Origin: Mustelus asterias
Taxonomy: Eukaryota
NCBI RefSeq assembly: GCF_964213995.1
Contig: NC_135808.1
Coordinates: 21,266,001-21,330,000, forward strand
DNA: 64,000 nt
Reading direction: 5' to 3'
The notes under the pieces are model-generated. The model was not told the origin of the DNA and ran no database searches. It saw only the letters and a program-made list of their open reading frames with translations. The position numbers were made by a program, and so were the translations under genes. This document shows positions 21,130 to 47,900 of this stretch, piece after piece; position 1 is the first letter of the stretch; each line of letters starts with the position of its first letter.

Positions 21130-21462
21130 GAGTTGAGCGCCACGGATCAAACCATTCCCTCATGAGACACAATGGCGAAAAAGAGGAATGCGTTTGGGCG
21201 CAGGCGTGTGTTAAACCTGCGAGTCTGGCACACATTTCACACCTGGTCAAAGATATGCTGCGCTACTAACTGGCGGATTGAAAGGAGTTAACTGAACCTG
21301 TTTGTTTAGTGACTTAATTAATATCAGTCTCTGTAGAACCAATATGTGTCTCTGGAGGTCTCACCCTTCTATTCATAAAGGCCTCTTTCCGCTGCGTTTT
21401 ATCTCTTCTTGTCAGTGGGAGCCTCACCTCCAACAGTAACCAGGATCAGTGGCTCCACAGGA
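21130..21462 (+). promoter_or_regulatory. Conserved promoter/5' UTR block of the GPR139-like genes
   Basis: Homologous at 4220-4585, 59850-60184 and 45422-45750 (-); shared tctattCATAAAggc TATA-like box ~90 nt before the ATG. Confidence 0.5.
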
Positions 21463-24400: not shown

Positions 24401-24938
24401 CACGTGGTATTTTATATTTTCAGATAGGTATCAGCTGTGGAACGCCTCCTGGTTTTGTTCTGTGCCAAGGAACATTTTGGACTCACCAGTCTGGTTAACA
24501 ATTATACTCCTTCACTACATTCTCACCCCGGGTGTTCCATTTGCTCTGATTGTGCTGCTCAATGTTTTCAGCATTAGACACATTTTATTGTCCAGTAGAG
24601 CCCGTAGAAGACTCCAGGGTCGCAGCAATGGCGAGAGTCCTAGCGTCCCAGAGATGGAAAGTCAAAGAAAATCTCTTGTTTTACTGTTTGCCATCTCTGC
24701 GAATTTCATCCTCTTATGGGCAATGTATGCAGTGTATTACACATGGGCTGCATCGTCGTTCATAGGATATGAATCTGGGCTGTTGCCTCAATTTGTTGAG
24801 GAAATAGGATTCATGCTGCAGCTCCTGAGTTGCTGTACAAAACCTTTTATCTATGCTGTGACTCAAACCGAGTTCAGAGAGCAGTTGATGAATGTGTTCA
24901 AATATCCATTTACTCAACTTGTTAAATTGATTAAATGA
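21463..24938 (+). CDS. GPR139/GPR142-like class A GPCR, 328 aa; join(21463..21544,24034..24938)
   Basis: Exon 1 MDQWKIAFFILDLEKVCYPVLAAIGIP, phase-1 GT-AG intron, exon 2 VNVVTIVIL..YLVAMAAADLL..DCSVWFTVTFIFDRFVAICC..LSCCTKPFIY; 82+905 nt in frame. Confidence 0.88.
22128..22385 (+). mobile_element. Internally deleted SINE with a duplicated head
   Basis: tgtggttagcactgcg repeated twice; standard SINE body and tail. Confidence 0.8.
22830..23860 (-). mobile_element. Decayed RTE-clade LINE in the intron
   Basis: Minus-strand remnants of an RTE RT and C-terminus (KQRRG..W...G..R.I.K and CGN*GRL); homologous to 61290-62340. Confidence 0.6.
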
Positions 24939-27610
24939 TGACAAGAACTGAACAATTTCCACTGTCACGCCCCACTTCATTTTAAGTTCAATTGACTCCC
25001 CCACATGGATGGGGTGGGCGTAGGGGTGACAGGTGCCAAAGTGAGGGATAAAGTCCAAACTGAGGAAGACTGCAATAGCTTTTAGAAGGGCATTGTTCAA
25101 CTTGAAGAGTGAGAAATAATTGGCAAATGAAATCTGACAACAAAAAACGTGTGGTGGAACATTTTGTTAAGGACATGAGTGAACTCATGTTCTTAGGAAG
25201 TTCCAAATCTAAGTAGGATCGATGCAATAATGGATCTTTTTCTCCAAATACATCAATCACTAAAAGATGAACCATAGCTTGGCAACATCATAAAAATGGT
25301 AAAGCATGCACGAGGCTTTGTTCGTAGAGGGAAGGAGTTGAAAAGTAGGGAAGTTATGGTCAACCTTAGACCACAACTGATTGCGGTAGGTAGTAGTATA
25401 AGGGACTCTGGGGAAAAAGCAGGAAAACGAATTAGAGACACAAATCAGCAATGATCTAATCGGATGGTGCCTGATTTTGCCAAGTAGCCAAAGATTGATT
25501 TGAAACGTTGGATTAGGCAAAAGTTTATGGAGATTTACCTCAACTAATTCCTAGCAAGATTTGAATAAGAAGCTGTAAGAGAATAAGCAACAGATGCTGG
25601 AAATACAGGGTGGACCAGACACTGTGAAAAGAAAACACAGGCCAATGTTGATATTTCATGTCCAATTCTTTTGTGTAATCTCCTGTGATAATCTGCCAAA
25701 CATTGTCATGGTTTACCTTGTGCATTCTGCAATACCCTAACATGCTAATCCTAGACGAATCTGTCTGCCCTGCTTTGGCAAATATACACCTTCAGTTCAA
25801 CCAATGGGAATAATTGGGATTTGGGGCGGGAGAGTGGGGTACACAGGGGGAGAATACGGAAGAAGCAAGATCACAGAAGTATTCCGAATTCTGAATGAGG
25901 ACAATTGAGTAGCAGCAAAGGATGAGTTGATTAGGACATAACACTTTTAACAGTCAGAAATAGCTTTTAAACAAATGAATTTAATAAGAAGTACATAACA
26001 TTTAGAAAGGGAAAATTGAGAAAAGTCCTCCTAACGTGGAACGTTATAGACTGCAGTGTAGTTTCAAAACAGGGCTACAACATAGCTATGCTGCTTATCT
26101 AACCTATAGCTTTCCTGACTCCATGGTCCTAATGGTCGCGCCCAATGGATTGACATTACTTAATGGAAGTTCAGTGGACTAAAGGGCTTTTAGTAAAATT
26201 GCCAGAGATTCCTGCGGCAGTGTGACAAGTAGCTACTTTTGTTAGCTGGTCTTGGAGCCTCCCAACAGGTTGGGGAGCTGTCAGTTCACCTATAAATCAG
26301 CCAAACAAACTTATTTCATTCGTTCATTGAATGAAGTGGTGCAAAGACCATTTTTCTCTTGTCCTTGAACTATAGGACTTGTTGAGGTTGCTTGCAAAGC
26401 CGTTGATCGACGTTATTCATGTAATGTAGTGACTTGCGCTTTGTGAAGATCAGTAGGAAATAAAGATATTGTTGTTGTTGCCATCTTGTTCCAATAAACA
26501 TAAAACAGGTTATTTCTCAATGCTTTTTTTTCTTTGTATTGCTCAGTTTATTTTCCTACGTGCACGTAATTTAAAAATATGGAAGCAATGGCAATGCCCC
26601 CTTTTCCTGAAGGTGTCTGATTCCATTGTGAATATTTGAAATGCTGGTTCAACAATATATTGCACTATTTAGCAAGCTTAGCTTTGATTTTGGCATCTAG
26701 TTTCCCTCCTTGCTGTTTTCATCTCGTTCTCCACCTTCCCATCTCCGTTTTCCCTGTACCCTTTTCCATCACTTATTTTCTCCTGATTTCCTCGCTCATT
26801 CTGTCTTCCCCTCTCACGTACCTCTTTCCATTTTCTATTATTGCTTACACGCTTTTCCCATTCTGCACCATTCCTCCCCAATGTCTTGAATTCATAGACC
26901 ATCAGCTAATTGGCAAGAATGAGCTATTTAAATTGTTATTGAAATATTAATTAATACACAGCATAGAACAGTTTAACATCACCAGCTTCAGTGACAATTA
27001 CTGCCATTTGAAACGTTGGCATGCATTATTACATTTGCCTTCAAAATTCTGCTTTAAAAATTATCCTCACATTTGTATTCAGCACAATTCTCATATAAGA
27101 TGCAAGCTATATGACCATGGTATTCGAATAATAAAATTGGTGTCAAGCCTTTATTAATATATCCACATAAATTTCTGCTTTGAAACATATAAAACTATTC
27201 AAGTTCAGATTGCTCTCTCCCTCTCAGAAGTGAAATCCAGAATATGTAAGTCCTCAAAGGTGTTTAGCCGAGTCATAATGAATCTATAAATCTTTGAACC
27301 CTGAGAGGTAGATATGAAAATTCACTCATCGTCATCTTCATTCAGTTCCATGCAAGTAATTAACAATGAATTCATAATTAAATGTACAATAGGTGACCTT
27401 TCAGGCGATTCCTAATTGAAACCGAGCCCTTCCTGCCAAAGGTATTGAAGTTTGTAAGAGCAGATAGTTTTTTTGTGTGTACTTGCTGGTTGAAAGTCAA
27501 TGGGTTGCCAGTTGACTATTAACTCTGATACATCACAATGATTCATAATATTTTCTTTTTTTATTTTCTACATTTTTGCCTTGTCAGTGCTAACTACACA
27601 TCAGAAGTGA

Positions 27611-28975
27611 ATGATGGCAAACTCAACGGAGATCAACGCATCTCTCAACAACCCAACAGGATTGTTTGATGGTGAAAGAGCGAGTTCTTACAAAACGTTC
27701 GAATTGGTCCTCATTGTGACTGTAACTGTTGCTTTAAGCTTGGTGACAATTATTGGAAACATTTTGGTCATTGTTTCTATCAAACTAAACAGACATTTAC
27801 AAACTATTAACAATTACTTTCTTTTCAGCTTAGCCTGCGCTGATATGATTATTGGCATATTCTCTATGAACCTATACACCACTTACATTGTCATGGGCTA
27901 CTGGCCATTGGGCCCAGTGGTATGTGACTTATGGCTCGCTCTGGATTATTTTGTCAGCAATGTCTCTTCCACGAACCTTCTAGTCATCAGCTTTGACCGC
28001 TACTTCTGTGTGACCAGGCCCCTGAGCTACCCCGTGAAGAGAACAGCGAAGGTGGCAGGGATGATGATCATAGCGATTTGGGTGATACCGTTTATCATCT
28101 GGGTTCCTCCCATTCTCTTTTGGCAGTTCATTGTAGGAGAGCGGACAGTTAGTGAGGGCGAGTGTTATGTACAGTTCCTCTCAAATCCAGTCATCATTTT
28201 TGTCACTGCCGTCGCTACCTTCTATCTTTATGTTATCATCATGGTAATCCTGTCTGTGGAATTAGTTCGTGCCAGCAAAAGTCGAATGAAAGAGAATAAA
28301 AAGGAACCTGAATCTAGCAAGGGCAGCATTTCACCCTCTATAGTGCAAGGCAAGACAATGGAGCCAAAAAATAATAATATATCAGATGATACCAATTGTT
28401 TGTCACATGGTAAACTGCAAAATGACAAAATAACTGGAGAAATATTAACTGGTAATAGTGGCCGAGAGGTGAAGCGGCTTCCCGGTGAATCAACTGGCGC
28501 CAGTGTCCCATCAAACCGTTTGAGAATGGACAACCCCAAAATCTCTTCCATAAATATAGTTGGCGAATTTGAAAACGGTACCAGTTGTGGTACCACAACC
28601 AGAATAGTGCCAGATGTCAGCAGCAAGAATGGGAATGAGAGGGACATCAGAGCAGACAATAAGACCAATAGAATTACGAGCACAGCTGCTGAAAAGAGGA
28701 AAGGGGCCGCGTCCCGGGAGAAGAAGGTGACTCGGACCGTCCTGGCTATTCTCTTGGCATTTGTCATCACCTTGAGCCCATACTTTGTCATGGTGCTCAT
28801 TTACACCGTTAGTCCAAACTGTGTCCCTTACACTGTCTGGACTATCGGATACTGGCTCTGTTATATCAACAGCACCGTCAACCCCGCTTGCTACGCGCTC
28901 TGTAATCCGACCTTCAAGAAAACCTTCAAGCATCTTCTCATGTGTCAATACAAGAACATTGGTTCCATAAGATAA
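27611..28975 (+). CDS. Muscarinic acetylcholine receptor M2/M4-like, 454 aa, single coding exon, divergent binding pocket
   Basis: [71 protein letters not shown]; a paralog rather than the canonical chrm2. Confidence 0.93.
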
Positions 28976-30936
28976 ACGCGCAGAATGTTATGAACACTTT
29001 ATACATCACGGTGATGGCGACTCTCGTAATATACATTTAAAATGCATGAACTTAATAGTTTCATTGTATCAGAATAAGGTTCAGGTCGATGGGGTGGTGG
29101 TAGTGGTGTGTGGTAGGGCAATCGGCAATTGTCATGTCGTTGGATGGGATATCCAGACCAGCTAATTAATTTCTATTGATTTACGAGAAATGAGCAATGT
29201 TGGCTAGGCCAGGCAGACAGAAATGTTTTTGACACAAAACTGCCCTCAGAAATTGCGTAGCAAGCCATTCAGTTGAAGAGCAATTGTAGATGGGCAACAA
29301 ATGTTGTCGGTGCCACCCCATGAAAGAATGAAGCAAATATCTATTGTTTGTAATATTTAAAACACATTCAATTATTTCCAATAGGTTTGTAATTGGTGTT
29401 ATAAATGAAGAATGTGCTGATTATTAGAATTTGCTAATAAGTGAGCTGGAAGATACATTTTCCCAAAATGAAGAACCATAAAACATCGCATCAGCATGAT
29501 TGCTGCGAAATGTTCACTTTTAGAACACAATAAAATTATGAATGAATTAATGTAGCCGCTACTGTGTAATATTATGACGGGGCGGGAGTGCGGATGGTTA
29601 GATACGATGTCTAGGATATCGACTGGATTAATGCAAACAGAACATGATGCGATTCCACCTTCCAGCGGAGACACCATCCGTGTCTGGCTTCATAGCCAAT
29701 ACAGAGCAGAAACAATCAATTTAACGGTATTTAACCGTGGTTCGGTGAATATTAGCCAAAAACCTGCCTTTGGTTAGAGAACTGAAGAAAATCTAACTGC
29801 TTCAAACCACACAATGTACACAATGCTTCTTGCGTGGAGAACATCTTTCACCATTTTCATTATTCTTCCTTAGTTAGTTCAAACTTCAATTATTTTGGAA
29901 AATAAATTTATAGACAGTGAACAATTCCATTTAAATCTTCGGATTCGTTCTCTTGATCATCGAATAGTCTATAGCCAAATGACCCACATTGACACCAATG
30001 CATAAAATGGGTTCTCGTGATGAATTCCTAATCTTTATCGGCACGAGGCTTTACCCTCAAATTAACTGGATCATAACAGGGTTAAGTTTAATGTTAACTG
30101 AATCCACTGCCTTTACATCAAATGCTCTCAGGTAGGATCAGTAGCATCTTGGAAGATGTCCAGCGGCAGCAGAAAGCCTCTTGACCTGGGGAGTAAATAT
30201 TCAGGTAAACTTCTGTAGCCAAATCCAAAACGCATGTTTGTGAAATGTAATTGTGTTTTTGCAGCTGTAAAGGTTGTTGCTAGTTTCAATATGTTTCGCT
30301 GAGTGAGTCAGTTGGGAAAAGAAATCCTTAACCCCTGAAATATGGATTACTATTTGATCATCCTACAGGAGATGTTTTTGTTATAAAGTAGGATGTATAT
30401 TAATATAGCCCAGTTTAAATAAAAGCTTTCCTAAAACAAACACCCTCTGGGCTTAGCACAGAGAGGCTGCTTCCAATTCAAAACGTTCACAGCCTCTAAG
30501 CATCCAACACAGATGAATTGCTCTCCAGGGCTTTTCCACACAGCCACTCGACTCAGTTAAGCATCCCATTTCTTAAACAAATTTCCCCTTTTTTATCTCA
30601 GGTTCCATTGTCCTGAAACACACATTCGAACTCAACATCATGTTTTCTATTTTGTCTCTGCTTTCAAGTCAATGAAATTTAATATACCACCCATTGTTTA
30701 CTCATGGGACTCCTGAAGGATGCAGATATTCCTCGACACTTCTGCATTCGGTTTTAAAATTTACCAGTCCAAACATTTCACAATTTTCTCACAAAGCACA
30801 TTTCGAACCAGCCTATTCACTTGTAGTTAAAACCCTCCATAACCTCTCATTACAAATGCACAAATCAAATACCTCAACCTTTCATATCTTAAGCCTCGCA
30901 GACAATCTGCCTCTTGTAACTAACCCGTCAACTAAC

Positions 30937-30942
<6 letters not shown>

Positions 30943-30992
<50 letters not shown>
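30943..30992. repeat. (CT)n(CA)n microsatellite
   Basis: Read directly from the sequence. Confidence 0.95.
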
Positions 30993-31229
30993 TGCCATAC
31001 ATTCTTTTTTATTTACGCAGGGAATTCAATCACAAGAATATAAAAAAATACATTTCTGATAGAAAAAGAATGAAATATCATATTTTGATATTTTCCTGTT
31101 CTTAACGCATTTCTTATTACATACTATAGTTAGCTATGTAAAGAACTATTAGAATATAATCTACATGCATAAACCATGAAAATATTCACAAGTCTTTAGA
31201 AAGAATGAAGTTAGTTCCACTCAACTTTT

Positions 31230-32620
31230 CGATTAACCACATCCAAGCCCCTTGAATTTAAATTCTTGACAACACATCTGCAATGATACCTTCCATCCAG
31301 TCACATGGATCATTTTCAAATTGAATGTTTGCATTAATAATCTCCACTGGAAGAGTCGTGCATTTGCATCCCAAAGGTTCTGCAGAAATTTCAAAGAATT
31401 GTGGTCAGTATATATAATCATCTCTGAAGAGTTACTTGCAATATAGACTTCAAAAACTGAATGTCTCCTTTTCCACAGTTGAATACTTATTCTGACGTAC
31501 TGTTACTTTCTGCGAAAAATATCCGATTGATTTCTCAATTCCTATTTTATCTTCCTGCAGCAAAACAGCGCCAACGTCCACATTACTGGTTTCAACAACC
31601 ATTTTGGAATGTGTTCGTTGAATCAGGTGCTGCGAGAACAGGTGTAGTAATCGGTACGGTCTTTAAGCTGTCAAGCACAGTCTAACACATTGCTGTGGCT
31701 CTGGAGTCAGATATAGGCCAGACCAAGTAAGGATTGCACATTGTAGCCCCTGTCTTTTCTTCCTTTACTCGCACCTGCTCCTATTTATCCCACCTGTACC
31801 AATTGAACATGTTGACATGGAACACATCCTAAATCTTTCTCCGACATATAATATTCACCACATATTTTAGCTTGTCACATTTATTTTCGATCTGATAGTT
31901 CACTAAACCTTGCTTTCAATTGTTCACGTCAGACCAGCAACAATTCAAACATCCCCCTACCCTTCCCCACTCCAAATGCAAATCGAGGATCAACTTATTT
32001 CTTCCTTTGCCTTAAAGATTTGCTGAGATATCTTAAAATGCTGTCCTTCCTGCCTATCTCACATACCCTACTCAATATTTCTCCGAATATCATTCAACAA
32101 TTCAGGATAATAATTTCACAGCTCTGTTTCACTAATTTCTTCTGAATTAGTTTGAATGATCCCCTTATTTCTTAACCACACGTGACCTCGAAGGGTCTGA
32201 ACACTTTTGACTTATTCTGGATGTCAGTAACAGCAAACAACAAGGATGGACTTTCCCATTTCCAAGCATGAAGGTACGCTCTAACCTCTTGTTTGTAAGA
32301 TTGTTCCCATCTTTCCAGAGCACCTTGTGACCCAGGGTGATAAGCTCATGAACTGATTTGTTTTATTCCCAGGCTGTGCATAATTTCTTTAAACAGATAT
32401 GGGTGTGAATTTTCAACCCTGATCAGATTGTATTTATTTTGCAAGTGGAATATTTTAAAGAATTTGGTTAACTCATCGAAAATCACCTTTGCTGTTATTC
32501 TGTTAAGGTGTCGCCTCTTGTGGATACATTCCCATTGTCAGTAACATTATCCATTGTCAATAAATACTAATTCCCACTTTCAGTCATTTGAAGACGCCAA
32601 TCAATCAAGAAGTTCTTGAA
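31230..32620 (-). mobile_element. Decayed Gypsy/Gmr1-like pol: integrase (about 32620-31780) followed by RNase H (about 31680-31230)
   Basis: GIKQISS*AYHPGSQGALERW (integrase); PVLAAPD..., KYSTVEKET and IYTDHNSLKFL..NARLFQWRLLMQ.FNLKMIHV.G (RNase H). Confidence 0.75.
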
Positions 32621-34421
32621 ATGTTCTACAAATGAAAAACTGAATTTATTGCAACTGCAGAACAAGTCTAAATCTTTGGCAAAATAAAATTATTCTGGCA
32701 GAAACATGAGAGAGAGAAAAAAACTGCAGTTGTTTTCAGATGTGTTCAGTTGCAGAATGTTCAGCGGTTGAAAAATATCAGTTGATTGGAAATTTCTCAC
32801 CTTTGATGGAAATCAAGGTTGGAGTGCTGATGGAGTAATGTTTACATGTGTCAAACGGACAGGGTAAAGCTTGTACGTTCTGAGAATGTGATTCAGAAAC
32901 CGAGAAGAACATCTTAATCAACGGACACAAACAAATCAGCTCTCATTTGAGTGAGAGATTGAGAAGGCAACTGTTTGCGAAATAAAGATGAGTTGAAACA
33001 AGTTTGGAAGCAGTTTAAAGACTGTGATCATTGCAGAGAACGTTTTAAGAAAGATGGGCATCGAAGAGTACTGCAGATGAAAATCGAAATAAAGCAAATA
33101 AGTTTCAAAAAAGACAGGAGATGGAACTGGTACTTGGTTAGACCAAGTAGAACTGGTGGAGACTGAATGCCAAACACAGGCAGAGGGGAAACTATGTGCA
33201 TTAAGCAAAGAACTGCTTCGGTGAAAGTAGAGGTTTGGTTGATGCAGAGGACGAAAGGGACAGATTGGAAAGTTAAGCAACCCAGTTCAAAGAGTTATGC
33301 CAGAGCAAAGTAGAACGATCAACAATTCAGCCACAGAAGGAAACTGAAATTGCATGTAATCGAAATTATAAGATTGCTGTAAATGTTCACGCAGCAGAAA
33401 AGCACAAGAAGTAAACTGATAAAATGGTCGAAGGAAAACATGCTTCATAGAGACGCTAGAAACAGAAGAAACTTTGTTGCGAGGTAAGTACAAGGAATAG
33501 AGTACCCCGGCCATTTCCTTCACAAGTGAGAATCTAAGATTGTGCATGAACTGTCAGGATGTAAGAATGTGCTGTATTGCAATGACGGTACCTGCATGCA
33601 TTGTAGAGAAAGTTTATTGACAGAGAAAAGAACTACCAGTGGATTGGCAAGTGACACTGTGCACAGAAAAAAGTATGTAGTCTTCTGCTGAGCACACAAT
33701 CTAGAACAGATCTCAGAAAGCTACAGGCCTGTATGGAGGAATCCCGTGCAAGACTGTATTGGGATTGTGCATATTTGAAGCATTCTCGAAGTGTTACATT
33801 AAACACAACCCTCAAGACCCCTCAATTAAACAATGACTACATTGATTTACAAATGCCTAACTTGTGACTATTGTGATTCTTTGGAATGCTGGTTGAGTAA
33901 TTCGATTTTGAAGATTGTATCAGAAAGTTGGAGGAGGGTAGTTTTGCGTTTGTAATGTTGCCTCCTTAAGACAATACTGCAAAAGAGTGTCACCTGACTT
34001 GAGGGACCACTGGGAACAGAGAGTGAGTGATCACCCCAGAGGATGGCGTCCTGTCTCGAGCAGTTTACATATAACAGCCAGGAAATTGGCATGCAAGAAC
34101 TGGAGCTGTTGCCTTCGGCAGCCTATGCTGCAGTATCTCATATGCCTAATTCTCTTTATCAGTAAATACCTCTTCCAGAAAGAAGTGTGAAGCCTCTTGA
34201 AATCTCAACTCCCCGTTACCGCTGACAGCGAGAATGGAGAATTTGTGCTCAGCCAAAACTCCACTCACTTCAGCGGGACCGGATAATCCCAGCTGCAGAT
34301 GAGGTTGGAGAATCCGACCCCAGAAGTGAGACACACAATACATAATACTGCTTCTCTTATCTCCTGCTCAGTTTTATTCTGAGATCGAGTTGAATCAATT
34401 CCAGATGAGACTTTGGTCTTC

Positions 34422-35792
34422 TTTGCGGACGACACAAAACTGGCAGGACTTGCAGATAGTGAGGAACATTGTCAGAGGCTACAGAAGGATATAGATAGGC
34501 TGGAAATTTGGGCAAGGAAATGGCAGATGGAGTTCAATCCTGATGAATGCGAAGTGATGCATTTTGGTGGGAATAATGTAGGGAGGAGCTACACGATAAA
34601 TGGAAGAACCATAAAGGGTGTAGAGACGCAGAGGGATCTGGGTGTGCAAGTCCACAGATCTTTGAAAGTGACGTCACAGGTGGAGAAGGTGGTGAAGAAG
34701 GCATATGGCATGCTTGCCTTTATAGGACGGGGCATGGAGTATAAAAGTTGGGGTCTGATGTTGCAGATGTATAGAACGTTGGTTCGGCCGCATTTGGAAT
34801 ACTGCGTCCAGTTCTGGTCGCCACACTACCAGAAGGACGTGGAGGCTTTGGAGAGAGTACAGAGGAGGTTTAGCAGGATGTTGCCTGGGATGGAGGGGCT
34901 TGGTTCTGAGGAGAGATTGGGGAAACTGGGGTTGTTCTCCTTGGAAAGACGGAGGATGAGGGGAGACTTAATAGAGGTGTATAAAATTATGAAAGGCATA
35001 GATAGGGTGAACGGTGGGAAGCTTTTCCCCGGGTCGGTGGTGACGTTCACGAGGGGTCATAGGTTCAAGGTGAAGGGGGGGAGGTTTAACACAGATATCA
35101 GAAGGACATATTTTACACAGAGGGTCGTGGGGGCCTGGAATGTGTTGCCGGGCAAGGTGGTGGAGGCGGACACACTGGGAACGTTTAAGACTTATCTGGA
35201 CAGCTATATGAACGGAGTGGGAATGGAGGGATACAAAAGAGTGGTCTAGTTTGGACCAGGGAGCGGCGCGGGCTAATTGTTCTTTGTTTCTCGTTTCAAG
35301 GCTTCATTCTATGATCATCTTGCTGGTGCCAGTACAGAGCGAGAGTGCGGATAGTTGGGAACCTGTCTCGGGGGCAGGGAATTCAGATGGTGTTCGTAAA
35401 GCAGAAGTGGAAATGAATAGGGTTGGGAAGCATTTTCTGATCAGGGCCAGTGTGATCTCCTGGACTCGTTTCGATCGCCTCAGGGGGTCGGAGAGGAATT
35501 TCCCAGATTTTTGTCCCCCATATTGGCCCTGGGGTTTTCACTCTGGGTTTTCGCCTCTCCCTGGAGATCACATGGTCTGGAATGGGGGGGTGGGGGTGAG
35601 TTAATAGGTTGTGATGAACAAAGCATCGTAGCTGTGAGGGACAGCTCGGTGGAAAGGATATTAGGATGTAGATAGGCTGGAAAATTGGACGGGGATCCTG
35701 GATTCAGGATTCAATCCTGGACCGGGGAGCGGCGCGGGCTTGGAGGGCCGAAGGGCCTGTTCCTGTGCTGCATTGTTCTTTGTTCTTTGTTC
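34422..35792 (+). mobile_element. Young 5'-truncated CR1 LINE
   Basis: Uninterrupted RT frame FADDTKL...WQMEFNPDECEVMHFG...RPHLEYCVQFWSP; long 3' UTR; (TTGTTCT)n tail. Confidence 0.95.
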
Positions 35793-38700
35793 TTGATGCA
35801 GAAGGATGTTTACTCTGCTGATGTAAAAGCTCGGAGGCGCTGAGAAAAAAGAACAGTGGGATAATTAGAAATATGCCAACAAATTTGGAGAATCCAAGTC
35901 AGAGGGAATTTGAAATCTAACCTCCTGAAAATGATCAAGAAACCTTCAATTCTGAGGTGAGAAAATGTGTTTCTGTTGATATTGTTGATTTAACATCAGG
36001 TCCTGGTATCTTCTTTGTTTCTCATTCAACCACTCTGAAAGCTTCCTACATCCCTGGCGTTATATAACTCTGTTTTGTTAATGTGCATCTTTATAACAAA
36101 CATATCTCCTATACTATGATCAAGTAGCAATCCAAATTTCAGGGGTTAAGGTTTTCTGTTCCCTCCTGACTCACGAGGCTAGACGCATTGAAACTAAGAA
36201 CAGCTGCAAAAACATCATTACATTTCACAAACGTGCCTTTTGCATTTGGCGACAGATTTTACCTGAGCACTTATTCCCCAGGACATGAGTCTTTCTGTTG
36301 CAGCGAGGTCTTCCAATAATCTACAGCCCCCAATTTAACTCATTTAATGTAAATGTAGTGAGTTGCTGCTGTTCAGTTAACATTAAACTTAACCCTGGCA
36401 GAGCCTAACGCTGAGACAGATTAGAAATTGATAAAGAAAATCCATTTGTTGCAATGGTTTCAGCCTGAGCCACAGGACTATGAATTATTCCAAGATCACA
36501 AGAAGCAATCAACAGATTGAAATGTAATTGTTCAATATCTATCAGTTTGTTCCACAAAATAATGAACGTGTTTATATCGAATGAATTCAGGAAGAATAGT
36601 AAAAAATGGTGATCGTGGTTATCCATGCAAGAAACACTGTGTGTATTGAGTGACTTGAAGCCGTGGGAGCTTCTTCAGTTCTCTGGTGAGGGCAGGTCGT
36701 TGGCTAATATTCACCGAAATACGGTTAAATGCCGTGATTTTTTCCACTCTGGATTGGATGTGGAGACAGACTCGGAGTGTGCCTCAGCTGGAAGGGGAAT
36801 TGAATTGTGTATTGTTTGCATTAATCGACTCTACAGCCTAGACCTCAGAACCAAACATAGAATAGAATCCCTACAGTGCAGAAGGATCCATTCCGCCCAT
36901 CGAGCCTGCACTGACAACAATCCCACCCAGGTCCTATCCCCGTAACCCCATATAGTTACCCTGCTAATCCCCCTGACGCAAAGGGGTATTTTTTTAGCAT
37001 AGCCAATCAACCTAACACGCACATCTTTGGACGTGGGAGGAAACCAGAGCACTAGGAGGAAACACGCAGACAGGGGGAGACTGTACAAACTCCATACAGA
37101 CAGCGATCCGAGGCCGGAATTGAACCTGGGTCCCTGGCGCTGTGAGGCAGCAGTGATAACCACTGTTCTACCGTGCTGCCCTTAATCATTCCAGCCCTCG
37201 CCCTTATATTACAATGTAGTGTAGAATTTGAACTAAAGACCCAGATTGGGACTGCCACTCTTTGATCTAAGCAGATCACGTGATTGCTATCCCCTTCACA
37301 ATCATTCAGACTCTGTACCACAGGCCTATAGTGGCAGCTGTGAGTACCATCTACAAGATGCACTGCAGGGAAGCATCAATGCTCCTTAGACAGCACCCTC
37401 CAAACACATGAACTCGACCATCTCGAAGGGGAAAGGCAACAGATAGCTGGCAACATCACCACTGCCTCACCACATCGAAATGACCCTCATCCAAACACGA
37501 TGAAGCTATTGACTCTGGGCACTTTAGATGTATGTTATGAGAATGTTGTGGTGGACCTCTTCCAAGTGAACACAGGATAACTAGGAGCAGTTTACAATAG
37601 TTTATTCATGATACAGGGTTAGACGGAATTACCTCAGACATACAACGGTAGCAGTATACTCCTCTGATGCTGCTCAAAGAAAGCTCGCCAATATAGCAAT
37701 CAAAGGGAAAACATTCGAATATTACTTTCTCCTTCAGGTCATATATAAAAACTGCTATATAGTTAATCAGTACACAGAACATTGTTTTAAAATTCTGATA
37801 TTGCCTACTTAGATTTAGCATTAAATCATTGCCCATAAGCATGTCTGTAATCTTCCAGATCCAAACTATCTGTTCTTCAAATAAGTCACGAACCTTGGTG
37901 GCATGTGCTCCTGATATTAGGAATTTGCGAGATAGCATTTGTCTAGCATGTGATTTTTATTGTAATGCAGGAGTTTTAGATCTTTTCCTCTTTCACCAAA
38001 TCTATTAATTTCCTTTTTCAGTCACCCACGTTTGGATCTAGGCCTAGCCCAAGGTAGAAAAATTCAATTCCTGCCAAACCCATCTTTTTAAAACTAATTT
38101 TAGAAATAATTAAAGCTGTATAATTGTATTCAAAGCAGTGAGAGCATATGACAGCATTACAGTTACATAGATGTTAAATGTTCTCAAGCTTTCCCTTCAC
38201 CAATATACATGTTGTACTTTATTTTTATTAATTTTATTTCTCAATCTCCTTCATTTGTTCCAACCCAAAATTTCATTTCATTTTACTTCAATTGGCCTTA
38301 AATTCAATTTGTCTATGGAGTTTGTGTCAGTGCCTTGTTAATTTAAAAAATATGTTTTCTTCAGACTATATTAACAACTGCAACGGCAGCCTGTTTGTCA
38401 ATTAATTGTGCAACACCCTTTCTTCATTGCAGCTGCAACGTGTACTCTTGTATTCTGGTTAATCCACAAGCTTCAAACCACTTCGGCTCTCTCGCACCTG
38501 CGTTGCGATTCCTTCTTTAAAATCCTCTCTTGGAGTCTCACATTCGCAAGCCATCTTCACACATTTCCCGATCCGTTCAATGTCGTCTCGTGTGTGTGTG
38601 TGTTTTTTTAACTCGGCAGTGTTCTGTTGTCATGTTTATTGGCATCTCTCTACCGTCTACCACAAAGCCTTGTTTTGAGTTTGTGGACATGTTATCAGTC

Positions 38701-40394
38701 TATAGCGACTATGTTTTACCAATCAATCTTATCATGCTGGATTCCACTGTCATTACAATGGCGCACGATACATATATGCATCCAGAATCTTGGCTGGAAG
38801 TTAAGTTATCAAATTCGCTTCTCTTAATTCTGAACAAAGGCACAAATATCTCCAAGTGAAATCTGTCATCTCATTCACCTAATCTATACTTTCCTTTTAC
38901 TAGAATGTTTATCAATACCCACATTTATACATATGTTCGAACTACACTACCAGCAGTTCTACAACATTTACAGTGAAACAAAACATTAAAAAATGTCATA
39001 ATATCTTTGAAACAAATTCGAGGCATTGACAAATATTGTTTGTTTGTTCTTTCCCATCCGCATCGAGTGATTAAATTATTGAATGCTTCCAATAGCAACT
39101 GGTACCCGGCCATTTATCGACTGCAATTTCAAAAGCAGGCTTTGTTGCTTTGACAGCATGGAAACCCCACAATGCAGAAGGAGGCCACTCTGCCCATCAA
39201 GTCTGCACCTACAACAATCCCACCCAGGCCTTATCCCCGTAACCCTACATATTTACCCCGTTCATTCCTCTAGCCTACGGATCCCGAGACACTATGGGAC
39301 AATTTAGAATGGCCAATCAACGTAACCGCACATCTTTCGGACAGTGGGAGGAAACGGAGCACCCGGAGGAAACCCACGCAGACACGGGGAGAACGTGCAA
39401 CCTCCACATAGACAATGATCCAGACGGGGAATCGAGTCTGGGTCCCTGGAGTTGCGAAGTAGCAGTGCTGACCACTGTGCCACCATGCTGCCCACCTTTC
39501 TGAAAGATAAAGTATTCTATTCTGTGCTTTAATTCTAACAACTGCTGGCCTCACACGGGGTCGGAAACCATCAACACTTGTTTAAAATAAAATATCAAAA
39601 AATCCATCTGACCACAAGCCCAATGAGTTAATATGTCCAGACATAAATCACATTGGGAACAAGCTCCGGCAGGAGATTTTGATAAAGATCAGCAGGTCTG
39701 CAGGACCTGAAGTGGCGGCGGTTGGGCGGAGAAAAATTGACATGAAATTGTGATGCTTCATATCGACTTAAGAAACTTCTCGTTCTAATTTCTTCAATTT
39801 TGTGCCAATCTCTTTTGTCTATTTTTTTTCTCTTTTAAACCAATTTGAGTTTCCTATCTGCTACTGAATCAAAGTTGCAAATGTGTTGTCAATCGAATGC
39901 CAATATTTTTAAGTGAAATGTTTTGGAAATTTCATATTGGGTTGTTGCCAAACTTTTGACTTATCTGTATGTTTAACAACAAACTGGCCTTCGTAATTTT
40001 TAATTACAAACTCAAACACAATTCCCTTGAATTCTAGCGCAGTTCATATTTCTCTTAAACAGAAGCTCATAGATGCTCAAATTAAGTGAATGTCAGTTCT
40101 CTTTCCAAATTAATTACTTGATTCTATAATACTCATGAACAGCACCTGCTTCAACAATGACTTGACTCACATGTTCCTTCAACTGGGCAACGTATCTTGG
40201 AATGACGGTTGTGGGATACGGCATTGCAGATGTCATGATGAACCTCACACCCCAGCATTTCCTTATCAAGCTGGAAAGGGCAGAGTGGCGGGGTGGGGGT
40301 GGGGAGAGGGGGCGGGGAGTGTTGTTAATTCCCTTGGATTTGAAGATAGCAACTACATCTGCTTGCTGAGAACTGAATTGTCTCTCAGGCTGTT

Positions 40395-40637
40395 TGATTT
40401 TAGCTAGTAAGAGTTTTAACAACACCAGCTTAAAGTCCAACAGGTTTATTTGGTCGCAAATACCATAAGCTTTCGGAGCGCTGCTCACTCATCTCCATCT
40501 GACGAAGGAGCAGCGCTCCGAAAGCTTATGGTATTTGCTACCAAATAAACCTGTTGGACTTTAACCTGATGTTGTTAAAACTCTTACTGTGTTCACCCCA
40601 GTCCAACGCCGGCATCTCCACATCATGATTTTAGCTA
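40395..40637. mobile_element. Penelope-derived foldback element with 12-bp TSD
   Basis: TGATTTTAGCTA at 40395-40406 and 40626-40637; ~80-bp inverted arms. Confidence 0.85.
40495..40531 (+). ncRNA. Minimal type I hammerhead ribozyme motif
   Basis: CCAU-CUGACGA-A-GGAGC-AGC-GCUCC-GAA-AGCU-U-AUGG. Confidence 0.7.
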
Positions 40638-42172
40638 CACATGGGGAATAGGCTGCTTCAAGGGAGGCGTCACTTGGTGGCGTAAATAACTGCCTCTAAG
40701 TCCCCAGAGCATCCTCTAACTCTTCATTTACTCTGGCAGTTTCTGGCTGTAAATCAGTATCTTTTTCAAAGCTTTGGTCAAACAGCAATTTTCTTTTACT
40801 GTCAAGTTCCCTTAATTGTTTGGACGGTTCACTCAGTCATGGGGCACACAGATGTGCACTGAAGCCTCACTTATTCTGGACTTTCTACAACTCACTATTT
40901 CCTTTCTGAGCCTCTTTAGAAAGGATACGTTCAAAATCTCCGTCACATTCTTCTACAGCTCCCAGAGCGTCATCTGTTCCTGTCTCCAATGTGAAACTTA
41001 CAATCAGTCCCATTCTCGCACACACCAAATTCACTGTTATCTTTGATTTTACTACCTACAATCTGAGGTGTTGTCCATCCATGAACCTTGTGAAAGAGCC
41101 CTCGGCTCCCCAGTAGAAATTCATGGTACTCCCTTCCTCTTTTACTCACGGCATCCTTTCACTGCTGCCAACGGGGGGTTCCGTTCTGCGACCTTCGCCC
41201 GCCCCGATTCCGAGTCTAGACGGTAAAATTCCAGCCCACAATAGTTCAAAATCAAACTGTGCCGTCTCGAAGGGAAGGGTATTTTACGATCTCGCCAGAG
41301 TGAGGTCGAATAATCCCGCTCCCTGTCTCTGCACAGTTTGATTGTGAAACATTGTGGTTCTGATCAACTTGTCTACTTGCGCTATAGCTTGAGGGGTTTG
41401 GCCTCCCTGTGAAGCTTTTGCTATTATCTTTTCTAACTGTATCCCACCTGCATGGCTCTGCAACCTGAACTCCACATGGTAGTGGTCTGGCCTGCCTGTG
41501 CGTCTTTGGCATCGCTAAGCCACAACCACAGCTCTGCCACATACTATTACACTCCCTGTCCTGAGTTCTCATTTAACATTCATTTGTTACTTCACTGGAC
41601 CACTGGGCAGGTTTGCTGCACTAACAGGACGGTGAACAAAATATATTCAACCCTGTTTAAGAGCTATTTCGATTAAACAATACGAATATCCAGCTGACTC
41701 CAGCAAATTGTCATAGTGGACTTCTTCCAAATAACCACCATGCACCAAGGAACATGTTACAATAGTTTATTCATGTTTCAAGCATGGAGAGAAACATCTG
41801 GATCACCATCCTCTGACACAGCTCTAACACAGCTCCCTGATATAATAATCACAGGAACAACATTGAAATACAACTCTCAGCTCCAATACAAAGATACAGA
41901 CTGCTGTACGATTAGTCAATACACAGATTTTTTAAAAATTCAGATCTGTCTCTTGTTAAAACTGCGCCCAAAAGCTTGTCTGTAATCTATCATCAAGCTA
42001 TATGTTCTTCTAAAAAGTGGACAACCTTGCAGGCGAGTTCTGCTTCCATTAGGAACTCATTTGACACGCATGCGATTTTACTCTAACTTACTCAATCTAT
42101 TAATTTTCCCTTTCAAGAGTTATCATGATCAGGCTGTAGAAAGTGTTCCTAAAATGCGGCTTGTGGCCGGGT

Positions 42173-43477
42173 TTATCGTATCGTACCGATGTTCTTGTAT
42201 TGACATATGAGAAGACGCTTGAAGGTTTTCTTGAAGGTTGGATGACACAGCGCGTAGCACATTGGGTTGACGGTGCTATTGATATAACAGAGCCAGTATC
42301 CAATAGTCCAGGCTGTGTAGGGGACACAGCTTGAACAAATGGTGTAAATGATCACCATGACAAAGTATGGGGTAAAGGTGACGATAAATGCAATGAGTAT
42401 ACTCAGGACGGTTCTAGTCACTTTCTTCTCTCGGGACGCAGTTCCCTTCCTCTTTTCAGCATGTGTTGTGGTCATTGTAATCATCTTATTGTCAGTTCTG
42501 ATATCTCTGTCATTCCCATTGTTGCTGCTTACACCTGGCACTATTCTGCTTATGCTACCACAGTCGCCATTTGTTTCATATTGGCTACCTACATTTATGG
42601 AAGACAGTTTGGGGTTCACCATCCTGAAAGGGTTTGATGGGGCCATACTGGGAACTGGTGATTTATCGAGAAACCGTTTCTCCTCATGGCTCCAACTATC
42701 AGCTACTATTTCTCCAGTTATTTTGACATTTTGCTGTTTTACCTCTGACAACCCGTCAGGAGCACCTGATATGCTGTCATCATTTTTCTCCTTTTTATTC
42801 GCTTTCATTCGACTTTTGCTGGCACGGGCTATTTGCACGGACAGGATAATTATGATGAACGCAGGGGTATAGAAGCTAGCTACGGAAGTGCCGACGATGG
42901 CACCTGGATTTGTGAGGAACTGTACATAACACTCACCCTCACTGACTATCCGCTCCCCTACGATGAATTGCCAGAAGAGAATGATAGGAGCCCAGATGCT
43001 AAACGGCAGCACCCAAGCAACAGTGATCATTATCCCTGCAACTTTCACTGTTCTCTTCATGGGGTAGCTCAGAGGCTTTGTCACACACAAATAACGATCA
43101 AAGCTGATGATAAGGAGGTTCATCCCAGAGGCAGTACTGACAACATAATCCAGAGCAAGCCATAAATCACATATCACTGAACCCAAAGGCCAGTAGCCAA
43201 TAACAATGTAAATGGTGTATAGATTCATAGAAAACACACCAATAATAAAATCAGCACAGGCCAAGCTGAAAAGAAAGTAATTGTTAACAGTTTGTAAATG
43301 TCTGTTTGCTTTGATAGAAACGATGACCAGAATGTTTCCTATAATTGTCACCAGGCTTAAAGATCCTGTCAGAGTCACAATGAAGAGCATTTCGACCGTT
43401 GTGTAAGGTCTCAATCCTTCAATCAAGCTTGTTGAGTTGTTGAGGGATTCATTTGGCATTGATGAGTCTTCCATCAT
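42173..43477 (-). CDS. Muscarinic acetylcholine receptor M2/M4-like, 434 aa, intact ORF
   Basis: Seven TM segments with muscarinic motifs; acceptor AG at 43496-43497. Confidence 0.92.
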   Translation of the reverse strand: MMEDSSMPNESLNNSTSLIEGLRPYTTVEMLFIVTLTGSLSLVTIIGNILVIVSIKANRHLQTVNNYFLFSLACADFIIGVFSMNLYTIYIVIGYWPLGSVICDLWLALDYVVSTASGMNLLIISFDRYLCVTKPLSYPMKRTVKVAGIMITVAWVLPFSIWAPIILFWQFIVGERIVSEGECYVQFLTNPGAIVGTSVASFYTPAFIIIILSVQIARASKSRMKANKKEKNDDSISGAPDGLSEVKQQNVKITGEIVADSWSHEEKRFLDKSPVPSMAPSNPFRMVNPKLSSINVGSQYETNGDCGSISRIVPGVSSNNGNDRDIRTDNKMITMTTTHAEKRKGTASREKKVTRTVLSILIAFIVTFTPYFVMVIIYTICSSCVPYTAWTIGYWLCYINSTVNPMCYALCHPTFKKTFKRLLICQYKNIGTIR

Positions 43478-44935: not shown

Positions 44936-47900
44936 GAATAGCTGTAGAAAGTGAAATATCTGAAAGCAGAGATGCCAGGTTGTGAGCTGGTCAGCGGGAG
45001 GTGGATTCTGAACCACCAGCACAAACCAGGTCAACACTTATTTATGTTCTTGCGGAACCGGATTTCGGATTTCTAACCTGTGTTGGAGATTTTAATATTA
45101 CGAAGAAGGCAGCACGGGAGAGCAATTATCAAATTGAGGATGCGCCATACTTGAGTTCAGAATGAAGCCAATATTGTCTAATAATCAATGCAAATCAAAT
45201 TAAAACATCATCCAGAACAGAATGAAAGAATTTCACTGAATCAACCTAACTAACATCTGAATCTACTGATTAAAATGATGAGAAGTTTAATGCAGTGGGA
45301 CATGGGTTATATCATTAATAGACGGATACATAGACTTACCAGGGATGCCGATAGCAGCAAGGACAGGATAGCAGGCCTTCTCTAAGTCAAGGATGAAGAA
45401 GGCTATCTTCCACTGGTCCATTCCTGTGGAGCCACTGATCCTGGTTACTGTTGGAGGTGAGGCTCCCACTGACAAGAAGAGATAAAACGCAGCGGAAAGA
45501 GGCCTTTATGAATAGAAGGGTGAGACCTCCAGAGACACATATTGGTTCGACAGAGACTGATATTAATTAAGTCACTAAACAAACAGGTTCAGTTAACTCC
45601 TTTCAATCCGCCAGTTAGTAGCGCAGCATATCTTTGACCATGTGTGAAATGTGTGCCAGACTCGCAGGTTTAACACACGCCTGCGCCCAAACGCATTCCT
45701 CCTTTTCGTCATTGTGTCTCATGAGGGAATGGTTTGATCCGTGGCGCTCAACTCTGCGTTAAACATCTCTCGGGGTGAATCACGAACCCATTCTGTTCTC
45801 CCTCCATGTTCTATAGTTGTAAAGTATTGTATTTAATATTGCTAAATTAAATGCATCAGCGTGAGATCTCAGAATCACTATGAATGACACTAAGAGAGAG
45901 ATGATGTTACACTTTCCATCCGCGATGCAGTGGAAACAGTTTACCGAATGAATAGCTGCATGTGGAGACGCCCAGTGTCACCAACACGATCAGTAAATGC
46001 GGATATTTGAAGAGGAAATATATTATCCTTGCCTCTAACCCGAGACTTTCTTTCGCATTCTTCCACAGGACAGAAGCTTTAATTATAATTCATGGCAGAG
46101 TGAAATTACATCACAATCACATAATTTATCCCAATCTATTTGCCCTGAAACATCATCCCATAGGCAGCCAATAAGGATACCAACTCCAGGAGTGCCATCC
46201 CGTGAAGGATGGACAGGTGAGGTTTGCATCCACTGGAGTTTAGAAAAGCAAGAGGCGACCCGATCATAAGCTTTAAGATGCTGAAGCGAATTGATAAGTT
46301 GGATGTGGAGAGGATGTTTCAAGTTGTGGAGAATCTAGAAATAGGGGTCACTGTTTCAAAATAGAAGGACGCTCATGTAACACGGAGATGAGGCTGGTGA
46401 ATCCCTGGATCTCCGTTCCTCAAAAGGCGGTGGGAGCAATGAATATTGTGAAGGCTGAATGTAATAGATTCTTAATTTAAAAGGGGTGAGAGGTTACCAG
46501 GGGAAGTCAAGAATGTGGGGTTCAATTTACAATTAGAGCAACCATGATCTTATTGAATGGCAGCGCAGGCGCCAGTGGCCGCATGCCCTACTCCTGCTCC
46601 GAATCTATATGTTCATACGTGAGCCGTGCTTGGACAGGGAGGCTAAACAGAAGGAGGTGTTAGTAATTGTAAGTAAAAAGGGGGAAACGGGAACTAAAGT
46701 TTTTGAACTTGACCTTCCTCTGATTAAATTGCAAAATGAGGAAGTACTTAAGAGTTTATAAGTAATATTCAGTTATTTTCGGAGAAACTGTCGAAATGAC
46801 TCACAAAAGCTGTTGCAGTCACACAAGGAAATCTGTGGGTAGAGGCCAGGGAAGACACTTTGTCAACACATGATGTTGATGTGTGGGGTTATGTCCTAAT
46901 CAACTCATCCTTTGCTGCTACTCAGTTGTCCTCATTCCGAATTCAGAATACTTCTGTGATTTTGCTTCTTCTGCATTCTCCCCATGTGCACCCCACACTC
47001 CCTCTCCAAATCCCAATTATTCCCATTGGTTGAACTGAAGGCGTATATTTGCTGGAGCAGGGCATACAGATTAGTCTCGGACGAGCATGTTAGGCCATTG
47101 CAGAATGTATAGGGTAAATCATGACAATGTTTGGCAGATTATCACAGGAGATTACATCCACATTGGTTAAATCCTATAAAATTGGCTCTAGCGCCGAAAT
47201 AAATTTAACGCAAACTTCAAAATGACGAAAGAGAGGCCAGTCACTGAAATTGGAGTTCACACATTGTAATGGCGCCAAAACCAGATGGACCACAAAGCCT
47301 CTCTATGACCACCGCAAAGTGAGAGCAGTAACAAAGGAGTAACTGGTATCCATTTGCACAGTTTGAAGATTCCATTGAAATAGCCAGACAGACAGTACGT
47401 ATTACCAAAAAAATGACTTACTTTGAGGATACTGGAAACTTTCATTATCGGAACGTACAAAAGAGATATCGGGCGAGATTCCCCAGCCTCCCAGCCGCGT
47501 GTTTCACTCACCTGATGAAGGAGCAGCGCTCCAAAAGCTCGTGATTCCAAATAACTCTGTGAGACATCTTACTGTGCCCACCTCAGTCCAACGCCATCAT
47601 CTCCACATCATTACTATTAATATCGTGAGTGATGTGAAGTAATACTTTGAAATGAATATCCTATTAATAGAACCCCATCTGATGACAGCACTAGTGACCA
47701 TGGAGCCTGATATTGTTTACATTCACTTAACAAGCCGTTCAGTTGTATCCCTAATTGAAGCAACGTTTCTATATCACCATATAGGTGTCACCAGAAGGGA
47801 AGTTAGAAATTTCCAACCCACAACGTAATACTCGAAGCTGCAGAAATGTAACAACGTGCTGTTTCAGAGGTGATGAGGTGCCGTTCCACAGGACAGAATC

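Follow-up and report, generated by a model that had tools for sequence, protein, structure and literature searches.

The 64,000-nt window analyzed here, a stretch of an MHC-bearing contig of Mustelus asterias, contains two intact receptor genes derived from the muscarinic acetylcholine (ACh) receptor gene CHRM2, P0001 and P0002 (Table 1), with M2 as the best PDB match (E 3.6e-166). Across the seven-transmembrane (7TM) region, the two genes are identical to the genome's own M2 at 215/276 and 209/276 residues. Identity to solved M2 is 65%. DNA contigs from two public runs of one sample cover P0001 and its flanks in 30/30 bins, perhaps not independently of the assembly; as both runs cover the flanks as well as the gene, they behave as genomic DNA. 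No RNA run turned up among the listed sequencing runs, which speaks neither for nor against expression. The recent duplicate of P0002 differs from it, among other changes, by a nonsense codon in intracellular loop 3 (ICL3) of the assembly sequence; a frameshift was considered for this copy and rejected, the lesion being a nonsense substitution. In the degraded copy near the window start, I5.39 and T5.46 suggest membership in the same clade as the intact genes. Disruption of a pseudogene-like kind is limited to these two copies and L006. Of the seven copies in the local sub-cluster, three are broken, and another remodeled M2-like gene (L002) begins about 0.9 kb past the window end. Exons of GPR139-like orphan GPCRs accompany the receptors. 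The main exon ahead of P0001 matches GPR139 structures weakly (E 3.9e-7), and the main exon is absent between the first-exon copy and P0002.

Table 1. Receptor genes, receptor copies and associated features in the window
Feature	Position	Strand	Remarks
Degraded M2-like copy	about 2931..3787	-	TM1-TM5 and start of ICL3; stops and frameshift
GPR139-like first exon	4541..4666	+	contains an in-frame stop; 11489 copy lies 6.8 kb downstream
Segmental duplication arm, recent, inverted	10029..21948		97-99% identity in blocks; other arm in 35793-49028
Inverted duplicate of P0002, recent	11489..12793	+	3 differences in 1311 nt
GPR139-like orphan GPCR, first exon	21415..21543	+	upstream of P0001; ATG and GT donor
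GPR139-like GPCR, main exon	23982..24938	+	2.7 kb upstream of P0001; 7tm_1
DNA homology to canonical CHRM2 locus	27268..29544	+	coding exon and flanks
P0001, intact CHRM2-derived receptor ORF	27611..28975	+	single exon, 454 aa
P0002, intact CHRM2-derived receptor ORF	43477-42173	-	single exon, 434 aa
GPR139-like first-exon copy	45341..45469	-	1.9 kb upstream of P0002
Next GPR139-like gene	60140..63835	+	exon 1 60140-60265, main exon about 62912-63835

This contig carries at least 14 CHRM2-derived copies, 11 of them intact; the canonical CHRM1-5 genes are located elsewhere in the genome and are unchanged. Homology of the P0001 locus to canonical CHRM2 starts about 340 nt 5' of the ATG, taking in the end of the intron, the acceptor region and a short 5' UTR, and runs through the coding exon into part of the 3' UTR. 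Because intron sequence of the canonical locus is included, a retrocopy origin was rejected in favor of a DNA-level copy. Bordering intron and UTR sequence accompanied the last CHRM2 exon when a copy of it came to lie behind a GPR139-like gene on the MHC-bearing contig, and the receptor copy then multiplied together with that gene. Synteny of canonical M2 with pleiotrophin was not recovered, both PTN/MK models matching one place only, beside CHRM4.

Residues were called by alignment to human M2 PDB chains and to the canonical M2 of the same genome. The sequence-only reading had described a pocket that keeps its amine-binding residues while losing others, and the alignment bears this out: D3.32, Y3.33, Y6.51, Y7.39 and Y7.43 are retained in both proteins, T5.39I and Y5.58S are common to both, and in a 10-residue stretch of TM6 W6.48 has become L in P0001 and F in P0002, with N6.52 replaced by F in each; N3.37T occurs in P0002 and P5.50Y in P0001. 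The altered positions, which that reading had called essentially invariant, are indeed unchanged in 87/87 canonical muscarinic sequences, so the replacements are not ordinary variation. Overlooked earlier were V3.40 to S/G, A5.46 to T/S, F181L, N6.58Y (residue 410) and N419Y, present in both genes. Altogether, P0001 carries S3.40, I5.39, T5.46, Y5.50, S5.58, L6.48, F6.52 and Y6.58, and P0002 carries T3.37, G3.40, I5.39, S5.43, S5.46, S5.58, F6.48, F6.52 and Y6.58. The muscarinic ester-side pocket (N6.52, W6.48, T5.39, A5.46) is lost in both, and the activation relay P5.50-V3.40-F6.44/Y5.58-Y7.53 is broken at 3.40 and 5.58 in both and at 5.50 in one, with F6.44 and Y7.53 retained.

Across the clade, residues were counted in 11 proteins from three shark species, near-copies included, so the counts are not independent. 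All 11 carry S206 (Y5.58S), L/F400 (W6.48L/F), F404 (N6.52F), Y410 (N6.58Y), L181, with a small side chain at 3.40 and a polar one at 5.46; all 11 also keep D103, Y104, W155, T190, F195, Y403 and Y430, and 10/11 keep Y426. Sites altered in every member were enriched in the pocket and switches (5/28 vs 2/106, p=0.0045, at a post hoc threshold); the majority test planned in advance showed no significant enrichment in the pocket (5/16 vs 14/106, p=0.075). D3.32, the tyrosines, DRY, ICL2, the TM6 base and NPxxY remained M2-like, and identity to shark M2 over the G-protein face reaches 149/154 for DRY-ICL2, 99/110 for the TM6 base and 170/187 for NPxxY-H8, compared with 2315/3036 for the whole 7TM region. 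As predicted from these residues, an M2/M4-type Gi/o coupling surface (DRY, ICL2, TM6 base, NPxxY) is present. The pocket varies across 39 shark M2-like proteins, with Y3.33 retained in 39/39. When short transcript fragments of the clade were searched for, the matches were 16 proteins with identities of 61-78%, and the two examined had a canonical TM6.

The copies are nested within shark M2 in trees built with FastTree and, from 39 rows, with IQ-TREE. The 24 shark M2-like rows group together at 97/95, and the remodeled clade, which includes the window genes and two catshark species, unites seven sampled members at 100/100 and was recovered in all 200 bootstrap trees. By the time of the houndshark/catshark split, a single lineage had already fixed Y5.58S, W6.48L/F, N6.52F, N6.58Y and F181L along with small 3.40 and polar 5.46; catshark P0005 also has P5.50Y, and some sister paralogues carry A5.46G. 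Basking-shark P0007 and P0009 show similar changes, for which a single origin with the clade gave AU p=0.316 in a topology test. They have more derived residues in common with a canonical-pocket basking-shark paralogue, which suggests that their likeness to the clade arose by convergence or conversion.

An amine-gripping site that is kept, beside ester-reading and switch parts that are replaced, points to receptors for another choline-like molecule. Our tentative preference, held at a little under even likelihood, is that the clade is a shark-specific subfamily of Gi/o receptors retuned to a non-ACh quaternary amine whose tail is bulkier and hydrophobic. The head group of the ligand would still be a tri- or tetra-alkyl ammonium. 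W6.48L/F and small 3.40 would open a deeper hydrophobic tail site, which together with N6.52F and T5.39I would become larger and more hydrophobic and would suit a bulkier ligand better than the choline or trimethylamines suggested previously. Loss of the N6.52-water-ester bond would uncouple ACh and weaken atropine-type antagonism. In favor of this reading, F6.52 is present in 21/22 other aminergic receptors of the same genome, and separate batoid duplicates are also altered at 6.52, 3.37 and 6.44, the stingray changes being enriched in the pocket (3/16 vs 1/106, p=0.007). The retention of Y5.58 in 22/22 other aminergic receptors counts against this reading, as does the near-inactivity of M2 Y206F. 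N6.58Y may raise basal activity and so compensate for the lost Y5.58-Y7.53 lock; we take 6.58 to be the position of N514 in M3 and M2 N410Y to behave like M3 N514Y. Y5.58 makes the activation lock (PMC12624438), and M3 N514Y has been termed a constitutively active mutant (PMC3841061). Transcription would start from the adjacent GPR139-like promoter or from some other promoter. Were GPR139-like exon 1 spliced to the receptor exon, its frame would stop just 5' of the P0001 ATG and overlap the P0002 start out of frame, so translation would be hindered.

The earlier proposal that these proteins bind a cationic amine and are not normal ACh receptors fits in that the cage is kept in 10-11 of 11 members and the ester subsite and relay are replaced in 11/11; its exclusion of ACh is less secure, as ACh binding may persist. 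A strong rival, which we place on the unlikely side, keeps ACh as the ligand of tonic or high-threshold cholinergic receptors in a new tissue, their pharmacology altered toward low efficacy or a higher basal tone and toward insensitivity to atropine. The full ammonium cage agrees with this, as do the match of N6.58Y to a constitutively activating mutation and the retention of W6.48, N6.52 and Y5.58 by many sister M2-like copies. Invertebrate type B muscarinic receptors, which are independent and ancient, likewise belong to the ACh family and have an altered pocket and lost antagonist sensitivity, being insensitive to atropine; that they are still ACh receptors supports this rival rather than our preferred reading. 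In M2, N404 contacts ACh via a water and is required for full activation (PMC9870890; PMC11987023), which favors our preferred reading; human N404Q, however, binds ACh 2.2-fold tighter with reduced signaling and partial agonism (PMC11987023), and W400 rotation is dispensable for activation by ACh (PMC9870890). Since N404Q still binds and W400 need not rotate, ACh may remain a ligand. Against this, the ester-side polar contacts (N6.52, T5.39) and two to three relay residues changed jointly and are fixed across species, a canonical M2 (L007) is still present, and a water bridge that Gln could partly make would be impossible for Phe. We consider it very unlikely that the proteins bind ACh or choline without signaling in response, serving instead to scavenge ligand, to activate Gi tonically in a ligand-independent way or to modulate other receptors. 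Y5.58S, W6.48L/F, small 3.40 and, in a sub-lineage, P5.50Y do remove switches kept in 87/87 muscarinic and 22/22 other aminergic receptors, but DRY, ICL2, the TM6 base, NPxxY and D2.50 are better conserved than the remaining protein, and atypical scavenger receptors, unlike the clade, have an altered DRY.

The genes might also lack promoters and have hitch-hiked with a GPR139-like/MHC region that is prone to duplication, drifting under relaxed constraint and barely translated, their seeming conservation owed to slow shark genomes or conversion. Such a history, which we judge improbable, accords with copying confined to the last exon and short flanking stretches, with the three broken local copies and with the upstream-ORF problem of a shared promoter. 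It also accords with an omega of 0.95 on the clade stem and with two terminal branches that are not significantly below 1 (P0001, omega 0.48, p=0.096; L005, omega 0.70, p=0.44). However, omega over the 7TM region of the four intact own copies is 0.45 (GY94; LRT vs 1 = 25.9, p=3.6e-7), so that fast change on the stem was followed by purifying selection. A dN/dS near 1, which the sequence-only reading had named, together with absent expression, as the sign of decaying duplicates, was not found, and despite the broken copies the clade genes are not simply decaying. When neutral evolution was simulated over 0.19 substitutions per site, the observed divergence, the ORF stayed open in 9 and in 7 of 5000 runs (less than 0.2%). 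The catshark orthologue, XP_038672303.1, is identical at 236/276 positions in the 7TM region vs 67/142 in ICL3, and the same derived pocket residues recur in 11/11 members.

CHRM2 (shark "M2a"), the heart-type ACh receptor gene, is the direct parent of the clade, with which it shares the ammonium cage, the Gi/o-type intracellular face and homologous flanking DNA. In contrast to CHRM2, the clade is multi-copy in tandem on another contig, has W6.48, N6.52, T5.39, A5.46, V3.40 and Y5.58 replaced, and evolves at roughly tenfold the omega (0.45 vs 0.04). Among engineered muscarinic mutants, DREADDs combine Y3.33C and A5.46G; N410Y occurs naturally in 11/11 clade members and A5.46 is changed in 11/11, whereas Y3.33 is kept in the sharks and the changes come packaged with loss of Y5.58 and W6.48. 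With TAARs and lamprey TARLLs the clade shares an aminergic lineage expanding by birth and death, Asp3.32 and F6.52, and one lamprey TARLL recognizes methylated amines through Asp3.32 and Tyr3.33 (PMC8890504). The analogy to TAAR expansions drawn previously holds for a lineage-specific tandem expansion with a diversified pocket. It does not extend to descent, which is from CHRM2 rather than the HTR4-related TAAR line, nor to the lost W6.48, Y5.58 and 3.40 switches; all 22 sampled non-muscarinic aminergic receptors of this genome retain W6.48, Y5.58, P5.50 and I3.40, and switch loss is therefore not TAAR-like.

Among the papers found in a literature search, none describes a shark muscarinic subfamily, and within the literature searched a non-ACh amine-receptor role is not described for the muscarinic family. 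The word "muscarinic" has 0 occurrences in the main texts of PMC11979771, PMC10751288 and PMC6368271, and nothing relevant appears in the supplements of PMC10751288 (whose shark sheets give nameless LOC ids), PMC8455134 (12/24 files) and PMC11372145. For the vertebrates that it covers, PMC6298421 reports muscarinic duplicates from tetraploidization only and six fully conserved ACh-binding residues; "cartilaginous" occurs 0 times there. The muscarinic family has been described as fixed at five genes (ten following the duplication in teleosts) that share an orthosteric site which does not vary, and the shark subfamily breaks both rules. It offers natural variants at residues mutated by pharmacologists (N404, W400, Y206, V111, N410, P198), bears directly on whether signaling by a class A aminergic receptor can dispense with the Y5.58 lock and the toggle tryptophan, and could reveal an unrecognized amine ligand or sense in animals with small TAAR and OR repertoires (PMC6368271).

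A broader and, to us, rather doubtful extension is that the M2-derived family might sense quaternary amines and choline esters of foreign origin, whether prey, microbe or parasite, with its genes beside and among the MHC class I array and under the promoter of a giant orphan-GPCR family. It would then form a chemosensory or immune-surveillance repertoire with a natural route of activation that needs neither W6.48 nor Y5.58, and rays would show pocket changes in parallel.

The best solved-structure match of the two intact receptor reading frames in the window was to M2 muscarinic receptors (E 3.6e-166). Substitutions that a sequence-only reading had named in P0001 and P0002, the proteins of the 27611 and 42173 genes (among them W6.48 to F/L, N6.52F, T5.39I and Y5.58S), were all confirmed as listed. 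In line with its claim that these positions are essentially invariant in M1-M5, they were unchanged in 87/87 canonical muscarinic sequences (own-genome M1-M5, shark M2a and bony-vertebrate M2). Further changes common to the two proteins are V3.40 to S/G, A5.46 to T/S, F181L, N6.58(410)Y and N419Y. The 11489 copy lies within the inverted duplication, one block of which put a GPR139-like first exon ahead of the 42173 gene. The M2 ECL3 cysteine pair is partly or wholly gone in the 27611 gene, L002 and L005 (the latter two at other loci of this genome) and retained in the catshark orthologue and the 42173 gene. Database model P0117, which joins the nonsense M2-like copy to the downstream GPR139-like gene, is likely an annotation artefact.

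Features located in the window, with positions in nucleotides
Feature	Position	Strand	Remarks
Class A GPCR ORF, P0001	27611-28975	+	single exon, intact, 454 aa
Class A GPCR ORF, P0002	43477-42173	-	single exon, intact, 434 aa
Third M2-like copy	11489-12793		3/1311 bases differ from the 42173 gene, one giving a stop in ICL3
Fourth M2-like copy	~2931-3787		degraded
GPR139-like two-exon orphan GPCRs	21415-24938, 55537-56408, 60140-63835
Database model P0117	11489-24938		726 aa
Recent inverted segmental duplication in the assembly	10029-21948 vs 35793-49028		several blocks, 97-99% identity
Presumed LINE reverse transcriptase-/Penelope-type endonuclease-like fragments and 206-bp near-perfect inverted repeat	34383-35249, 49027-49962, 54864-55652, 2110-2772, 50995-51525, 6725-7151

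Genome searches scored 150/223 and 150/255 candidates, so copy counts are lower bounds: at least 14 M2-like copies, at least 11 with an intact frame, occupy C8, the contig bearing the window, and at least five canonical muscarinic receptors with unchanged pockets all lie off it. Canonical CHRM2 (36.0 Mb) and CHRM4 (81.1 Mb) share another contig, C9, the remaining three being of M1/M3/M5 type; CHRM4 adjoins a midkine-family match, and the search next to CHRM2 on C9 turned up no pleiotrophin. Seven copies, four intact and three broken, make up the remodelled sub-cluster at C8:21.27-21.38 Mb, with the other C8 copies at 21.6-25.3 Mb. C8 is also the MHC contig: it carries class II alpha (34.3 and 34.5 Mb) together with all 140 matches to MHC class I domains, which are most concentrated at 21.62-24.75 Mb. 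This class I array, whose edge lies ~0.3 Mb beyond the window end, contains three M2-like genes (L008, L014 and L015), with 13 kb separating L008 from a class I gene. The linkage may reflect nothing but a duplication-prone region.

Similarity to the canonical CHRM2 locus begins ~340 nt 5' of the ATG, takes in the final stretch of the last intron and reaches the 3' UTR, indicating that a DNA segment rather than an mRNA was copied; an mRNA-derived origin is ruled out by the homologous intron end. At 9/10 C8 M2-like loci examined, the upstream DNA holds a GPR139-like exon in the same orientation, and none was found within ~7.8 kb upstream of canonical M2. In the 27611 gene, a transcript spliced from GPR exon 1 into the conserved acceptor would have a reading frame ending right before the ATG, and in the 42173 gene the best acceptor is out of frame; a shared transcript would face this difficulty in translation for both. 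At L022 and L026 (genes L002 and L014), exon 1 would join the muscarinic exon in frame with no stop, giving a predicted hydrophobic N-terminal extension. In this genome the GPR139-like family is huge and spread over many contigs (4682 first-look candidates; 150/150 of those scored passed), and no name for it was found in the literature searched.

Among the best 120 of 2473 and best 120 of 2086 protein matches, M2-like paralogues came from Mustelus asterias, two Scyliorhinus species, Cetorhinus, Rhincodon, Chiloscyllium, Hemiscyllium and batoids; no squalomorph or chimaera paralogue occurred among these best matches, which does not prove absence. Canonical shark M2a forms a single tight cluster of 18 members. 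The trees omit nine Mustelus-labelled rows, two rows duplicating window entries and three loci that are not muscarinic; eight of the nine equal the genome's own loci at all tabulated positions, and the last is a gene model in which the 11489 copy is fused. IQ-TREE (39 rows) placed 24 shark M2-like rows in one group (97/95) nested in shark M2 after Heterodontus, with seven remodelled rows from this shark and both catsharks as one clade (100/100) and batoid M2 duplicates of separate origin; FastTree (77 rows) recovered the same groupings. By descent, the remodelled genes are CHRM2 paralogues. The catshark-houndshark split is Jurassic. Basking-shark P0007 and P0009 resemble the clade: both carry W6.48F, one of them adds N6.52F and T5.39I, and its partner adds Y5.58S. 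The AU test did not reject a single origin shared with the clade (p=0.316), nor do the data establish one. Stingray P0027, P0029, P0040, P0025, P0028, P0063 and P0099 and skate P0033 show parallel pocket remodelling at N6.52 (S/H) or N3.37 (Y/S), or by F6.44C, A5.43G or W6.48L.

Across the remodelled clade (11 proteins, three shark species), S206, F404, Y410, L181 and L/F400 are fixed in 11/11, and D103, Y104, W155, T190, F195, Y403, Y430, D2.50, DRY and NPxxY are retained. Identity to shark M2 is 90-97% at the G-protein face and 76% over the whole 7TM. Pocket enrichment was not significant in the pre-planned majority-changed test (p=0.075); stricter post hoc thresholds of 8, 10 and 11 of 11 gave p=0.029, 0.011 and 0.0045, with near-copies among the members. 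In an own-genome panel of other aminergic receptors (26 ORFs extracted, four wrong-frame ones excluded by eye), F6.52 occurs in 21/22, T3.37 in 21/22 and S5.46 in 14/22, so those shark changes represent a shift toward a general aminergic state. W6.48, Y5.58, P5.50 and I3.40 are present in 22/22, making the shark relay changes unlike every aminergic receptor sampled.

M2 Y206F is nearly inactive, and M2 N410Y, at the position equivalent to N514 of M3, is constitutively active. In solved structures the ammonium of ACh sits between D103 and a lid formed by Y104, Y403 and Y426, with the ester linked via water to N404 and W400 rotation unnecessary for ACh (PMC9870890); N404Q binds ACh 2.2-fold tighter with reduced coupling (PMC11987023), Y5.58 pairs with Y7.53 to lock the active state (PMC12624438), and M3 N514Y is constitutively active (PMC3841061). 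The predicted receptor would still hold a methylated ammonium, no longer read the acetyl ester, offer an enlarged, hydrophobic tail site and a vestibule with added aromatics (Y410, Y419), and reach Gi/o through an altered route, perhaps aided by N410Y; we hold this combination tentatively, at a little short of an even chance. Branched-chain acetylcholine analogues, which parasites are described as secreting (PMC13623875), illustrate one candidate ligand class, with no link to sharks here. That ACh remains the ligand with altered pharmacology, for which the retained D103, Y104 and Y403 speak and the fixed F404 does not, is a strong rival, though less probable. A binder without response, or a tonic activator, is the least probable outcome given the conserved G-protein face.

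The copies might instead be drifting hitch-hikers, as three broken members and a clade stem dN/dS of 0.95 (GY94), not different from 1, would allow. Pairwise 7TM values for the four intact own copies are 0.28-0.47 (NG86) and 0.37-0.62 (YN00), and the dN/dS near 1 that the sequence-only reading had tied to decaying duplicates did not appear among these copies (GY94 7TM 0.45, <1 at p=3.6e-7). Branch classes gave 0.04 for canonical M2/M4, 0.20 for other C8 copies and 0.46 for the clade crown; taken singly, the branch of the 42173 gene falls below 1 (p=0.0009) and that of the 27611 gene not significantly so (p=0.096). Simulated frames survived neutral evolution at 0.19 substitutions per site in 9/5000 and 7/5000 trials (substitutions only), and drift is improbable. 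The remodelled copies changed rapidly and then came back under constraint, though weaker, with birth and death continuing.

Judged by sequence, the offshoot of M2 is real, specific to sharks and under selection, with pocket and relay rebuilt. Compared with muscarinic receptors, it fails two defining sequence features, the ester subsite and the relay; the copies are not TAARs, whereas the expansion is similar in kind to the TAAR/TARLL co-option described in PMC8890504. A muscarinic-derived sensory or immune repertoire is a candidate reading that we regard as unlikely. PMC6298421 reports no non-tetraploidization muscarinic duplicate in any vertebrate analysed and leaves cartilaginous fish unmentioned. 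No description of a shark M2-like family was found in the literature covered, most subscription journals lying outside it; NCBI already labels the genes 'M2-like'. A second shark sub-clade, comprising L009, L010 and L011 (G000:C8:25.17-25.34 Mb) and catshark orthologues, carries N6.52F plus Y7.39F/C7.42A or V and retains W6.48 and Y5.58, with A5.46G and W4.57F in L010.
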